From positions 1 to 39,390 of IMG/VR virus record IMGVR_UViG_3300020045_006008: a stretch of 39,390 bases of DNA, one strand, 5' to 3'. The notes beneath the pieces are model-generated. The model did no database searches and had not been told where the DNA came from. It saw only the letters and a list, made by a program, of their open reading frames with translations. The translations under genes were made by a program, and so were the position numbers. Every line of letters begins with the position of its first letter. The stretch's first letter is position 1. Source of the stretch: a virus (Duplodnaviria > Caudoviricetes). Of this stretch, positions 1,604-36,817 are shown piece after piece.

Positions 1604-1632
1604 TTGCAACAAATAATAAATTGGCGTATTAT
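1604..1632 (+). promoter_or_regulatory. Sigma70 promoter for the long structured RNA
   Basis: TTGCAA-17-TATTAT; predicted start ~1639 coincides with the first base of an 11-bp hairpin. Confidence 0.65.
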
Positions 1633-1638
1633 TGGTAC

Positions 1639-2040
1639 ATCTGATTGTCTAACCGAAATTGACAATTAGATAATAAGAGGCAAAGTAATAGAGCCTCGTT
1701 TGAAGCTCTATATATTGTCTAACCGAATTACTATAATAATAGCATACTAGGTTTACTTATTCAATAGTTATGGGGAGTCGCTGACTGTTGCCTTCTAAGC
1801 GTAACTATAAAACAGCTTAGTAAATACAGCTCAACGTTTTAGGCTATCGTAAAGCTTGCTTTGTACTGATGAAAGTAAAACACAGCGTTCTTTAACAAAT
1901 ATATAGATGAATGAATAAGTTAAACTTTTTGTTTCTAGTGGTTAAAGCTACTAATAGCAGGGGAGTTAGTATTAAAGCATTCTCTGATATTGATACTAAG
2001 CACCTACATCAGGTATAGCTTAAATAATAACTCCCCGAGA
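1639..2040 (+). ncRNA. Long structured non-coding RNA or leader (candidate origin/attenuator RNA)
   Basis: No long ORF; hairpin 1639-1671; ACTTATTCA(1755-1763)/TGAATAAGT(1912-1920); GGGGAGTTA(1960-1968)/TAACTCCCC(2028-2036); boxA-like CGTTCTTTAACA at 1886-1897. Confidence 0.55.
1680..1729 (-). ncRNA. Candidate ~50-nt cis-antisense RNA
   Basis: TTGAAT-17-TATTAT on the minus strand (1764-1736); RNA begins near UUCGGUUAGACAAU, complementary to both copies of the 14-bp repeat (1644-1657, 1714-1727); ends in a TAGAGC/GCTCTA hairpin. Confidence 0.5.
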
Positions 2041-3640: not shown

Positions 3641-4491
3641 TATTGCTTCCCCTTCCCTTGCATAAAAGCAAGTATTACGTTCCAAAGTTGCTTTAGAACC
3701 GAGATAAATGTGTGGTCGCTAGCGTGCTGTGCATTGGCAGCAGCTTCAGCAGCTAGTTTTTCGGCAGCAATACGTTCAGCTTCAGTGCGCTTAGCTTCTT
3801 CAATGGCTTCTAGGCGAGCATTCTCAGCAATACGAGCTATCTCAGCCTGTTTCTCAGCCTCTATGCGAGCTAGGTTGGCTAATCTGTCGGCTTCGGCTTT
3901 TTCAGCAGCGGCTTTAGCAGCAGCAATCGCTGTGTCAGATGCAATCTGTTCAAGTGATTTACCTCTAGGAACTTTTAGGAAGTCAGCAATACCACAGGCA
4001 ATGGCGTAAGCATCTAGGTAATCATCAGCATCAGTAATTGAATCAACGTCAATAAAGCGAGCCTCAATAAGGACAGACTCAGCCTGAACACCAGTAATCC
4101 AGCCTAATGGTGAGTAGTTATTAATGTCCTTAACGCCTCGGCTTCGTAAACCAGTGATAGAGTTCATAGCCTTTAAGATGGTTTCGGCAAGCAACATTTG
4201 TGCTTCAAAAGCTGTAGTCCAGATTTCATTGCCAGTACCACCACCAGCGTTACGGTGAACCTGTATAGCATAGCCCTCGTAAAGTTTAAGGTTAGCGTTA
4301 GCCCAGTTAATCTCGGCTTGTAGGTTACCAACATTATTTGGCATATAGATTGTGTCAATTCCCCAAGTTTTCAAGTAGTAAACAATCCTATCGCACATAC
4401 GGACGTTATCAACGGCTTCTTGCTGACCTTGACCGATTGCGCCTGGGTCTAGTCCTGGTTGATGTCCTGCACTGATGAGGATTTTTGACAT
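3640..4491 (-). CDS. Endolysin, N-acetylmuramoyl-L-alanine amidase (Amidase_3) with Ala/Glu-rich helical C-terminus
   Basis: ISAGH..DPGA...QE, QVHRNA, GNEIW, SVLIE zinc-amidase motifs; AAGGAG SD. Confidence 0.9.
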   Translation of the reverse strand: MSKILISAGHQPGLDPGAIGQGQQEAVDNVRMCDRIVYYLKTWGIDTIYMPNNVGNLQAEINWANANLKLYEGYAIQVHRNAGGGTGNEIWTTAFEAQMLLAETILKAMNSITGLRSRGVKDINNYSPLGWITGVQAESVLIEARFIDVDSITDADDYLDAYAIACGIADFLKVPRGKSLEQIASDTAIAAAKAAAEKAEADRLANLARIEAEKQAEIARIAENARLEAIEEAKRTEAERIAAEKLAAEAAANAQHASDHTFISVLKQLWNVILAFMQGKGKQ

Positions 4492-4533
4492 ATTCAAACT
4501 CCTTTAATTAACCTTAATATATCACGCTAGAGG

Positions 4534-4941
4534 CTATTTTTCAATGGAGTGTCTGACAATTTGTTCGTCAACTGTCTGAGACTCAATGTGTTGTTCTTTC
4601 ATCATTTCTTGGTAACACTTAAGATTTCGGTCAATCATTTCTTGACTTTTAATCTGTAATTCAGCTAGATGCCCATTACGGGTCTTAGCTTCGTCAGCTA
4701 TTCGTGTCTGGGCTTCAGTGTTTTTTTTGGAAGCCTCGACTAATTGTTGCTGAGTATCGGTATTCTTTTGGACAACTTCCGTGAGCAGTTTAATGGTTTC
4801 AGCATTTATTTTGCTAACAACTTCACGTTCTAATCTATCTTGTTTGCGGTGGTTAGCGTCTACTTTTGCGTAAATGCCGAGTATGCCACCTATGAGTAAA
4901 CTTACTGCCCCGATTATGATACCTGCGTCGTTAGCTTCCAT
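4534..4941 (-). CDS. Membrane-anchored coiled-coil protein of the lysis cassette
   Basis: N-terminal TM (GIIIGAVSLLIGGILGIY) then coiled coil; directly upstream of the endolysin. Confidence 0.65.
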   Translation of the reverse strand: MEANDAGIIIGAVSLLIGGILGIYAKVDANHRKQDRLEREVVSKINAETIKLLTEVVQKNTDTQQQLVEASKKNTEAQTRIADEAKTRNGHLAELQIKSQEMIDRNLKCYQEMMKEQHIESQTVDEQIVRHSIEK

Positions 4942-5129: not shown

Positions 5130-5516
5130 ATGGCACTACACGCAGTAAACGATAGATTCAAAGTATTAGTCGCAACTGACGACTATGGCTTTGGTGGCGA
5201 AGCGAAAGGTACAGAGACGGGTATTGTGGTAGAAGTACCAGACATTATGATTTACTTGTCTTTTCATAGTTTTGCATTTGAAGATTCGATTGTAAACGAT
5301 GAGAAACTTAAGAAAATACAGGAATATTACGCACAATTTTTAAACAAGCGTGTCTATTGGGAAACTTTCCAAGACCGAGGGCGCAGAATTAAAGAGGGCA
5401 ATAAGGATTATGTTTATTTACAAATGACTGACCTACTTGCTTATTCAGATGACGCAGAAAATGACGCATATTTAGTCGATCAAACCGGCAAAGCTGGATC
5501 GTTTAACCTAGAATAG
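5130..5516 (+). CDS. Divergent GroES-like co-chaperonin (128 aa)
   Basis: LHAVNDRFKV resembles GroES PLxDRVxV; ETGIVVEV; C-terminal YVYLQMTDLLAY; immediately upstream of GroEL. Confidence 0.6.
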   Translation: MALHAVNDRFKVLVATDDYGFGGEAKGTETGIVVEVPDIMIYLSFHSFAFEDSIVNDEKLKKIQEYYAQFLNKRVYWETFQDRGRRIKEGNKDYVYLQMTDLLAYSDDAENDAYLVDQTGKAGSFNLE

Positions 5517-5525
5517 GAGATTACA

Positions 5526-7076
5526 ATGGCTACACAAAAAGAGAACAGAATATTATTAGACGAAAATGAGATGCGTACCAAAATAATGGAAGGTATCGAG
5601 GCATCATATCAGGCTGTGGCTACGACTTACGGCCCACGAGGTATGAATTACTTACTAGAAAAAGGCTTTGGTCGTCCAATCCTAACGAGGGACGGCGTAA
5701 CTGTCGCCCGTGATGTGTTCTTTTCAGACCGAGGTAAGAACATGGGCGCACAAATATCACTTGAGGCTGCCGAGGCTACTAACCGAACGGCTGGCGATGG
5801 CACTTCCCAGACTGTAGTCATAAATCGAAATCTATTCAAGAACGGCCTAAAAGCTATCGCCTCTGGCAAGCACCCGATGGAAGTCAAAGAGATGATTATA
5901 AAAGACTCTCGCACTATCCTAGAGGCTCTTAAAGATATGGCCATACCAGTTAAAGACGAACAGCTTAAAGACGTGGCTACTATATCGGCTGGCGACCCAC
6001 TTATTGGGCAGCTAATAGCTGAGGCTATCCTGTATGTCGGGGCAGATGGTGGCATATTGACCGAAAAGGCCCTAATTGAGGAAGTTGAGCGTGAGTACGT
6101 CGATGGATATTACTTGCAGAGTGGTTTTACAGCCCTACAGTCGGGCAAGAAAGAAATAGCCGACCCACTAGTCATTGTGAGCCAGAAACGCCTCACATCA
6201 GGCCCAGACGCTTTTGAGATATTAACCCAGACGGCTAAGGTAAGTGGATTTAAGCCAGGTGAGATACCTCGTATGTTATTTATAGGGAATATTGAAGATG
6301 CCGCCTACAACGTGATTGTTGAGAATATTAATCGTGGCACTATCGACGCTGTTATTATCAAGACCCCACCATCGTTTGGCGAGATGGGCAAAAGGCTGCT
6401 TGAGGACATCGCCATCTATGCCGGTTGCCAAGTAATAACTGAAAGTACAAATATAAAGATGTTTACGTCTAACTTTGTTGGTCATGTTGATAAGGTTATC
6501 GCAGGTAAAAGTGAATCCACTCTGTTTGCAGATAACACTACCGAGGCAATACAAATCCGAGTGGCCGAACTACGTGACCAAATTGCAAGCGAGCCAATTG
6601 ATTCTGTATCTGAGAAACTTCGAGACCGAGTGGCTAAGCTTGAGGGCAAAGTTGCTATCTTCCGTATAGGTGGCGCAACTGATACCGAAAAAGAAGAGTT
6701 GGAGTTCAGAATTGAAGATGCTATTAACTCGACACGACACGCTTATGAAGATGGCATTGTCGCAGGTGGTGGCGTAACATTAGTCCAACTTAGCAAGCTA
6801 GATATATCTGAATTATTTAAAAACGCCCTACTTGATACCGTTAAAAGGTTAATCAGCAACGCTAACTATTCGCCAGATGTCAAATTAAACGAGATATTTA
6901 ATGCACCACAAGGCATGGGTTTTAACCTTAAGGTCAGCGATGAACTAGTCGATGTCTTTAAATCTGGCGTGATTGATGCCTATGTAACCGTCCGAGAAGT
7001 GATTAAAAACGCATCAAGCGCAGCTAGTGGCGCATTGACAGTTGGTGGTGCTAGCTTGTTTGAAGATAAGGAATAA
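5526..7076 (+). CDS. groEL: GroEL-family chaperonin (Cpn60)
   Basis: TYGPRGMN, TRDGVTVA, AGDGTSQT, VATISA, ERxAKL-like RDRVAKLEGKVAIFRIGG, RIEDAIN, GIVAGGG, GVID motifs. Confidence 0.95.
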   Translation: MATQKENRILLDENEMRTKIMEGIEASYQAVATTYGPRGMNYLLEKGFGRPILTRDGVTVARDVFFSDRGKNMGAQISLEAAEATNRTAGDGTSQTVVINRNLFKNGLKAIASGKHPMEVKEMIIKDSRTILEALKDMAIPVKDEQLKDVATISAGDPLIGQLIAEAILYVGADGGILTEKALIEEVEREYVDGYYLQSGFTALQSGKKEIADPLVIVSQKRLTSGPDAFEILTQTAKVSGFKPGEIPRMLFIGNIEDAAYNVIVENINRGTIDAVIIKTPPSFGEMGKRLLEDIAIYAGCQVITESTNIKMFTSNFVGHVDKVIAGKSESTLFADNTTEAIQIRVAELRDQIASEPIDSVSEKLRDRVAKLEGKVAIFRIGGATDTEKEELEFRIEDAINSTRHAYEDGIVAGGGVTLVQLSKLDISELFKNALLDTVKRLISNANYSPDVKLNEIFNAPQGMGFNLKVSDELVDVFKSGVIDAYVTVREVIKNASSAASGALTVGGASLFEDKE

Positions 7077-32189: not shown

Positions 32190-32567
32190 ATATACAGTAT
32201 AGCACAGATGTGTTTATTTGTCAACTATTGTCCTTAATTTAATTTGTTTTTTGATGTCTCGGTAAGTCTTATCGGCTTCAAAGTCTAGTTTGAACGTGCT
32301 TAGTTTACTAATAGTAGTCCTTTGGTTAATTAATATGACAACCCTGGCGGGGTTTCCCCCGCACTCGACGTCTCTCAAAGGGTCATAAGTGTTGTAAGGT
32401 GCGATTAGATGTATGGTGCTAACAACTTAGAGGAATGCTCACAGAACCTCCGTCTCCTAAATCGCCAGCACTATTACATCTAATTGTTAATCTTAGTTCA
32501 GTTGCCAGCGAGGTGAATCGCTATGGATAACTTAATTTAGGCAACTTGGTGTCCTGACAGACTGTAT

Positions 32568-36693: not shown

Positions 36694-36817
36694 TTTATCC
36701 TCCTTTAGTTATTCGTATCCATATTTGGTGCTAGTAGCAAGACGTTAGACATCCCCTAACGAGTATGGTGGCTACCTTGAACTACTAGCACCGAGTATAG
36801 ATACGAATTGTTAATGT

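Follow-up and report, generated by a model that had tools for sequence, protein, structure and literature searches.

Promoters, repeats and hairpins at the locus

The window, i.e. the whole stretch of 39,390 nucleotides analysed here, holds a phage genome that is circular and complete, 39,269 bp long, with a 121-nt terminal overlap. The locus under study (1604-2040) lies between a divergent HNH endonuclease gene on the minus strand (1133-1504), which flanks the cassette described here and is probably outside it, and a plus-strand zinc-finger ORF of 92 aa (2103-2381), the first gene downstream. No ORF of at least 50 aa with a start codon was found within 1505-2051. A strong ribosome-binding site at 2061-2066 precedes a 5-codon ORF at 2075, and the zinc-finger ORF begins 28 nt later in another frame. 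Further on, at 2398-2814, is a 138-aa ORF whose histidines are arranged in an HNH-like pattern; it has 117 relatives and matched nothing in Pfam or PHROGs.

We observed a sense promoter (TTGCAA-17-TATTAT) at 1604-1632 on the plus strand, with a predicted start near 1638. The sense RNA would open with a hairpin of 11 bp and an 11-nt loop (1639-1671, pair probability 0.98). The first copy of a 14-mer repeat (R1, 1644-1657) makes up the inner 5' arm and the loop of this hairpin, and the second copy (R2) lies at 1714-1727 on the same strand. A minus-strand promoter (TTGAAT-17-TATTAT, with TG before the -10) is present at 1764-1736. Promoter matches alone were not above background (10 found, 13.3 expected). 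The 14-mer repeat beat 40 of 40 shuffles, and the genome has one other exact 14-mer pair at 50-125 nt spacing. This pair (31510 and 31584, 74 nt apart) flanks the start of the terminase large subunit gene.

In folds of truncated transcripts, a GAGGC/GCCTC pairing (1677-1697; 1677-1681 with 1693-1697) was present in the 63-nt nascent fold and was displaced by a second hairpin (1688-1711) once position 1715 was reached. The promoters, the hairpins, the 14-mer at 1644 and 1714 and the alternative pairings were thus all found where the preliminary description had placed them, and the order of the nascent folds agrees with its proposal that the pairings are mutually exclusive. It had further proposed a structured, ORF-free RNA of about 400 nt. 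The lack of ORFs held, while the structure held for the two ends only: folding of 1636-2045 gave a z-score of -3.4 overall, with the signal confined to 1636-1760 (z -4.8) and 1955-2045 (z -3.5 on the plus strand), and 1760-1955 folded no better than shuffles (z 0.0).

Rfam gave no match at gathering score for the window, and only sub-threshold chance matches for 250-2400. An exact 14-mer scan of viral contigs returned 89 loci, none related beyond the seed, and a promoter-pattern scan returned six, i.e. the record of the related locus L228 and five unrelated ones.

A predicted antisense RNA complementary to both repeat copies

The second hairpin has a predicted stability of -13.4 on the antisense strand against -10.0 on the sense strand. 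Since this preference for the antisense strand is the usual case, the most fitting reading of the hairpin is a terminator for an antisense RNA of about 50 nt. The predicted terminator (1679-1711, minus strand) has a 10-bp hairpin (1711-1688) and a short U-rich tail, and the RNA predicted from promoter and terminator would run from 1729 to 1680 with a 5' tail, a hairpin and a U-rich end. Its predicted start is at the 3' end of R2, and the tail, complementary to R2, is therefore complementary to R1 as well, as the preliminary description had claimed. R1 is thereby predicted to be a second target of the tail. Binding of the antisense RNA to the first sense hairpin gave a predicted gain of about 7 kcal/mol (-34.4 as compared with -12.4 and -14.6).

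We found no plus-strand terminator within 1604-2100, and the folds with blocked targets yielded none in any state. When the antisense RNA was compared with 27 gene starts, no target stood out.

Three promoter-hairpin-terminator units resembling small-RNA genes were also observed within 331-1140 (about 364-421, 907-980 and 1004-1140). Two of them start with ACCGAAA like R1, a similar trio is present in L228 (4880-5230), and comparison of the units with the same 27 gene starts gave no clear target.

The same layout recurs in related phages

We examined 24 upstream regions, and 15 of these carried an exact repeat that beat 40 of 40 shuffles. Eleven of the 15, including the window, were of the same kind; the other four (coding or promoter repeats) were set aside. 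In all ten relatives, which were first picked by the repeat alone, a facing minus-strand promoter (TTG-N3, 17-18 nt spacing) has a -10 that ends 4-8 nt past R2, and a G+C hairpin with a U-run follows it on the minus strand.

A layout detector, built from the window plus ten loci that are themselves among its hits, gave 19 hits in 2.92 Mb of partly redundant loci and none in 2.88 Mb of block-shuffled DNA. The hits were the window, 11 loci with a gene for a small initiator-like protein (mini-initiator, see below), five loci with 290-1000 non-coding bases behind the cassette (L091, L183, L274 of genome G013, L356 and L357), the minus strand of L325, and L140. The L325 minus-strand hit is the same cassette read in reverse and was left uncounted; that in L140 was rejected as a probable false match. 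The layout is thus present in 17 loci, and its conservation in 16 phage loci besides the window supports the sense/antisense logic of the preliminary description. Six loci were blind finds (L091, L183, L274, L325, L356 and L357).

Across the 17 cassettes the repeat, or tag, is 11-17 nt long, and its sequence nearly always changes from phage to phage. In 13 of the 17, R1 supplies one arm and the loop of a 5' hairpin with -5.9 kcal/mol or better (z -2 or lower in nine). In 12 cassettes the antisense strand gives the more stable second hairpin; in one the two strands tie, in one the antisense form is slightly weaker, and in three the measured window missed the hairpin. In silico, tags paired with a mean of -19.5 for cognate and -5.8 for non-cognate combinations, and no cross-reaction was seen.

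The six non-coding regions behind the cassettes differ from one another. Their sense-strand folding was strong in L091 (z -5.8), L183 (z -6.5) and G013 (z -3.3) and weak in the window (z -1.9); L356 and L357 did not fold well (z -0.3 and -0.8). Only two of 15 pairs of regions share sequence (window with G013, and L356 with L357), so more than one kind of element may be represented. An initially striking 14-base match of the window to L091 was rejected as not significant (reached by 117 of 1000 shuffles). L356 and L357 keep a helix of 8/7 bp through changed sequence, and a second helix needs G-U pairs on the sense strand; RNAalifold on this pair found 2 of 46 base pairs changed on both sides and did not recover the kept helix. 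The two genomes of the non-coding type G060 and G062 (86% and 97% complete) had no initiator among 27 early ORFs and no mini-initiator protein; L091 and L183 are 6-kb fragments.

Several wider searches were made. A 16-mer scan for further non-coding cassettes (22 loci) recovered only L091's own record, BLAST of the L183 region against GenBank phages gave no match, and Rfam on seven related loci gave only sub-threshold chance matches. The cassette was absent from 185,760 bases made up of the regions around ten exonuclease matches in 401 Saccharimonadia-class genomes and the middles of two phages. A description of the cassette was not found in the literature, where coverage of subscription papers was thin.

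Some relatives carry features of their own. Behind the L183 cassette (minus strand, 3905-4900) there are about 900 nt of long stems, and L356 (10950-11200) and L357 (4385-4638, minus strand) have two alternative or pseudoknot helices; these are structured RNAs without a match. L227 (2300-6260, genome G011) has an exact tandem duplication of about 1.95 kb spanning the cassette and the mini-initiator, which may be an assembly artefact. In L357 (1013-4340, genome G062) a cluster of genes for a thymidylate synthase-like protein, a glucosyltransferase, a kinase, a pyrophosphatase and a dCMP deaminase suggests modified DNA bases.

The cassette lies in a slot for replication genes

A GroEL profile led to 14 related phage records, with capsid proteins 65-81% identical. 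The closest syntenic relative is L228 (genome G012). Here, a promoter similar from -35 to -10, which aligns with the sense promoter of the window, is followed by a short leader, a 233-aa replisome organiser (match E 3.9e-9), a 93-aa ORF and the homologue of the zinc-finger ORF at 2103, which is the third gene of this operon; a homologue of the ORF at 2398 comes next. As this synteny puts a replisome-organiser operon at the same place, we take 1636-2074 of the window to be the slot for replication genes. We observed no trace of either the L228-type or the mini-initiator in the window.

In several other relatives the slot holds a protein of about 95 aa with 240 homologues (L313-L329, G001, G002, G007, G010, G011, G013 and G014). 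Its N-terminal linker is repetitive and its domain has four helices (model pLDDT 74), no origin-binding domain is in sight, and it has no significant match in Pfam, PHROGs or PDB sequences. Three independent-looking but weak fold comparisons were obtained: VIA-align against DnaD domains gave Z 6.0 (rmsd 2.5, 60 aligned) and 5.5, at ranks 12 and 17; Atlas scores against RepB/RepA C-terminal clusters were 0.79-0.81; and Foldseek against DnaB/DnaD-like phage proteins was not significant (E above 1). We infer from these models that the protein is a mini-initiator, resembling the DnaD-like C-terminal domain of an initiator. The 5' part of its gene, which encodes the linker, contains iteron-like DNA repeats.

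The cassette lies directly upstream of the mini-initiator in 11 of 20 loci examined and is lacking in the other nine, and its repeat layout was absent from all three loci with a full or winged-helix initiator. The ribosome-binding site of the mini-initiator often overlaps the antisense promoter. G013 carries both cassette types, mini-initiator and non-coding, which weakens a simple either/or between them. A search with the mini-protein profile gave 0 of 50 exonuclease-related records. The tie to replication that the preliminary description had suggested therefore gains support from the synteny, from the replisome organiser in L228 and from the DnaD-like mini-initiator in 11 loci, and we regard a link of the cassette to replication control in this family as probable.

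The non-coding stretch and the distal hairpin

The plus-strand stretch at 1765-2074 has no ORF and matches the relatives' mini-initiator gene in place and approximate length; it is the candidate primer or origin region. An alternative genetic code was rejected, as the candidate frame holds all three stop codons. A motif at 1836-1904 (plus strand) recurs in the non-coding DNA that follows G013's second cassette (70% identity over 71 nt, reached by 0 of 1000 shuffles). The same motif gave two weak chance matches to plasmids, and its pattern was not found in three genomes; a DNA search of 23 related records with 1560-2110 gave four short weak matches and missed the similarity to G013. A possible long-range plus-strand stem pairs 1751-1763 with 1912-1924 (probability about 0.4).

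The longest inverted repeat of the genome is an imperfect 77-nt hairpin at 1960-2036, which can form on both strands and fits the minus strand better (1955-2045, z -7.7). Folding of 1760-2050 as a whole (z -2.7) did not stand out from that of the coding regions of mini-initiators, which span z -0.9 to -2.8.

Other intergenic and repeated features of the window

Strong secondary structure was also seen elsewhere. A 98-nt intergenic hairpin at 36711-36808 has 27-nt arms and about -45 kcal/mol on either strand, and the non-coding stretch at 32329-32520 forms long stems that are more stable on the minus strand (-63.6 vs -54.1). A family of 47-nt repeats lies between structural genes (10617, 18007, 22030, 26556 and 29612), with a hairpin, a ribosome-binding site and a -10-like box on the minus strand. 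The ORF at 489-866 is bracketed (438-906) by a 30-nt inverted repeat that would pair the 5' and 3' ends of its mRNA; G009 (L225) has both the arms and the gene, and L319 has the 5' arm. Early leftward promoters at 313, 33790 and 37536 have the common spacer motif CGCTTACG, which is also found in L227 and L228.

Gene content and likely host

The genome encodes a terminase, a portal, a capsid protein, lysis genes, a GroEL/GroES-like pair, an annealing protein, a YqaJ exonuclease and NinG. Comparison of 47 ORFs with PHROGs and of 42 with Pfam left many small ORFs unannotated and showed no recognisable polymerase, helicase, initiator, integrase, repressor or partition protein. The absence of a recognisable initiator and repressor, noted in the preliminary description, was thus borne out among the 47 scanned ORFs, and an integrase is likewise absent. 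The GC-skew check that it had called for was run and proved uninformative: neither the GC skew nor the fourfold-site skew of the genome gave an origin signal.

The major capsid protein is 42% identical to that of the TM7 phage DolZOral124_53_65, one of only two GenBank phage records matched, and a protein of the family was found in a Saccharimonadales genome (one of four loci). On these two grounds, Saccharibacteria are the likely hosts. A search of GTDB genomes with the capsid protein gave no relative, and BLAST of 250-2400 against GenBank phages gave no match. Relatives of the exonuclease and of GroEL exist at 70-80% identity, and the phage-borne GroES-like and GroEL genes (5130-7076) are typical of a large family of phages of about 40 kb.

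Comparison with known systems

C4-type immunity RNAs are cut from the same-strand transcript as their targets. The predicted antisense RNA here has its own opposite-strand promoter, and membership in the P4 CI / P1 C4 group, named earlier for its logic, found no support in Rfam. ColE1 RNAI is about 108 nt long with three stem-loops, whereas the antisense RNA here is half that size, has one hairpin and uses a direct repeat; family membership with ColE1 RNA I/II, likewise named for its logic, was again without an Rfam match, and the window has only G4 runs. ColE1 replication also involves a persistent R-loop, cleavage by RNase H and extension by Pol I, steps that are hypothetical for this locus. 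The predicted layout nevertheless resembles ColE1 (see PMC7157519) in its ORF-free sense RNA, an antisense RNA directed at the 5' portion of that RNA, alternative pairings and the absence of a recognisable initiator gene.

The antisense RNAII of plasmid pMV158, according to the accessible portions of PMC4485353 and PMC5703833, is about 50 nt long with a single-stranded 5' tail, one hairpin and a U-rich end, all of which are predicted here too. RNAII is counter-transcribed at the start of the initiator gene, and its tail drives binding (same portions). A second copy of the tail target at the sense 5' end, which here is R1, is not described in those portions. The pMV158 target is the translation start of a rolling-circle Rep mRNA; the window has no rep ORF, and such a target is plausible in the 11 mini-initiator loci. 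In the par (Fst) locus of pAD1, convergent promoters and direct repeats read oppositely give complementarity, as they would here, and the repeats vary between loci, giving specificity (PMC7472228, as far as its available text goes). The cassette differs in that no toxin ORF fits in the roughly 30 nt between R1 and the second hairpin (none for a hydrophobic toxin of about 30 aa was found), the hairpin is not a bidirectional terminator and has no U-tract on the sense strand, and the context is replication. The cassette thus resembles pMV158 RNAII in shape and pAD1 par in the logic of its direct repeats.

In plasmids pT181, pIP501 and pSK41, too, the leader of a replication gene is the target of an antisense RNA, and the Rep protein of pSK41 has a DnaD-like C-terminal domain (PMC5703833, in its available part). 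The cassette differs from pT181 and pIP501 in its shorter antisense RNA, its second target in a direct repeat and the lack of an inducible sense terminator. The pT181/pIP501 attenuator logic proposed earlier found no support, since no antisense-induced sense terminator was seen in 1604-2100 in any modelled state. By these comparisons the cassette does not belong to the RNAI, C4/CI, pT181 or Fst families.

Among phages, the origins of Ceduovirus (c2) and of non-RepA mycobacteriophages offer a likeness: a non-coding phage transcript of varied sequence and no phage initiator, the transcript being sufficient or required for replication (PMC7150918 and PMC7157519, in the parts available). Those parts describe neither an antisense RNA nor a repeat tag for these origins, and the mycobacteriophage origins adjoin parABS (PMC7157519, available part), which was not found in the window. 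The function of lambda oop RNA is covered in the available part of PMC12197685. The TM7 phage DolZOral124_53_65 (MG269973.1) has the same gene order with chaperonin and exonuclease; its corresponding region differs in holding a short minus-strand ORF, mini-initiator-like by eye and unmatched by profile, and no repeat cassette was detected there.

What the cassette may control

Together, the layout at the locus and its recurrence make it very probable, as far as sequence can tell, that a real antisense cassette is present. We infer that the antisense RNA would be a negative control: of mini-initiator synthesis in the 11 mini-initiator loci, and, at this locus, of a non-coding function, whatever the sense RNA does. 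The single-stranded 5' tail of the antisense RNA would bind the loop of the first sense hairpin (R1) once that is made and would open the hairpin; the tail could also pair with its full complement around R2. The pairing would block the productive folding or use of the sense RNA, as in copy-number control, and the variable tag would set incompatibility or immunity groups.

We tentatively favour, while stopping short of calling it probable, the reading that the locus controls the start of phage DNA replication and that the non-coding transcript here primes or opens the origin without a phage initiator protein. This reading rests on the recurrence of the layout, on the replication genes found in the slot and on a genome without a recognisable initiator. 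Against it stand the flat folding result for 1760-1955, the minus-strand preference of the distal hairpin, the sparse sequence sharing among the non-coding regions, the presence of both cassette types in G013, the weak DnaD likeness of the mini protein, the nine mini-initiator loci and three other initiator loci without the layout, and skews that give no signal. In its least certain step, the sense RNA would run on through 1765-2074 and serve host enzymes as a primer or R-loop. The mode of action would resemble copy control of plasmids by antisense RNA and, should the primer reading hold, that of the ColE1, c2 or non-RepA mycobacteriophage origins. A wider version, to which we give distinctly less credence, is that one portable, tag-addressed antisense cassette controls two interchangeable replication starts in phages of Saccharibacteria-like hosts, either a headless DnaD-like initiator or a non-coding RNA primer. 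The RNA would then be the origin-opening part in both, and the mini protein an optional helicase-loading adaptor.

Four other explanations were weighed. The locus could be an immunity or lifestyle switch that gates the zinc-finger gene at 2103, or the RNA itself, with no direct priming, the tag conferring phage-specific superinfection immunity. The lack of a repressor or integrase and the differing tags fit this unlikely reading. So does the 3' arm of the distal hairpin (2029-2036), which can alternatively pair with 1771-1778, with 1960-1968 or with the ribosome-binding site at 2061-2066: with both antisense targets blocked in the fold models, the 1771/2036 pairing fell from 0.35 to 0.02 and the 1960/2036 hairpin rose from 0.64 to 0.96, a model-dependent shift, and blocking either target alone left this distant equilibrium unmoved. 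However, pairing with the ribosome-binding site had a probability of 0.0 in every modelled state, the downstream genes differ among the non-coding loci (of which L091, L183, L356 and L357 have a fresh promoter-like site, judged by eye, before the next gene), and the usual gene behind the cassette is initiator-like.

It is rather unlikely that the antisense switch is real and 1765-2074 is a decayed mini-initiator gene, replication being helper-dependent, recombination-based or driven by another, unrecognised initiator. The stretch has the position and approximate length (290 nt) of a mini gene, 1760-1955 has no folding signal, and the annealing protein, exonuclease and NinG would suit a recombination route. 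One peptide, YRKACFVL, resembles the central motif of the family, its score being reached by 26 of 500 shuffles with a subfamily profile picked post hoc; the whole-family profile, on the other hand, scored below shuffles (467 of 500 reached it). Five further loci show this cassette ahead of non-coding DNA, the same bases match the non-coding region of G013 at 70%, and decay would not be expected to spare a perfect cassette and a 77-nt hairpin.

We consider it quite improbable that a protein, either host DnaA/PriA or one of the phage that went unrecognised, opens an origin located here while the transcript only activates it and the antisense RNA tunes transcription, as in lambda. The lambda oop gene sits directly before the initiator gene, and the antisense gene has that position in the mini-initiator loci; the slot is where lambdoid-type origins lie, and the relatives' mini genes hold iteron-like repeats. 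No iteron array was found in 1765-2074, however, and no candidate binding protein was identified. Finally, R1 and R2 are very improbable as DNA operators bound by a protein repressor: they do overlap the two transcription starts, lying at about +5 and +1 of their promoters, a usual operator position, but the repeat spans a hairpin arm with its loop and not half of a dyad, the antisense strand is the one that the second hairpin suits, no repressor was recognised, and only one other site in the genome comes within one mismatch of the 12-nt core.

How phages of Saccharibacteria and other ultra-small bacteria replicate, or persist without an integrase or repressor, is little understood. Antisense control of the plasmid type, with an exchangeable address of 11-17 nt, would account for both copy control and immunity groups. 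A minimal replicon of 500 bases could become a vector for hosts with almost no genetic tools, and the paired occurrence of the cassette with and without a headless initiator makes a switch between protein-led and RNA-led initiation testable.
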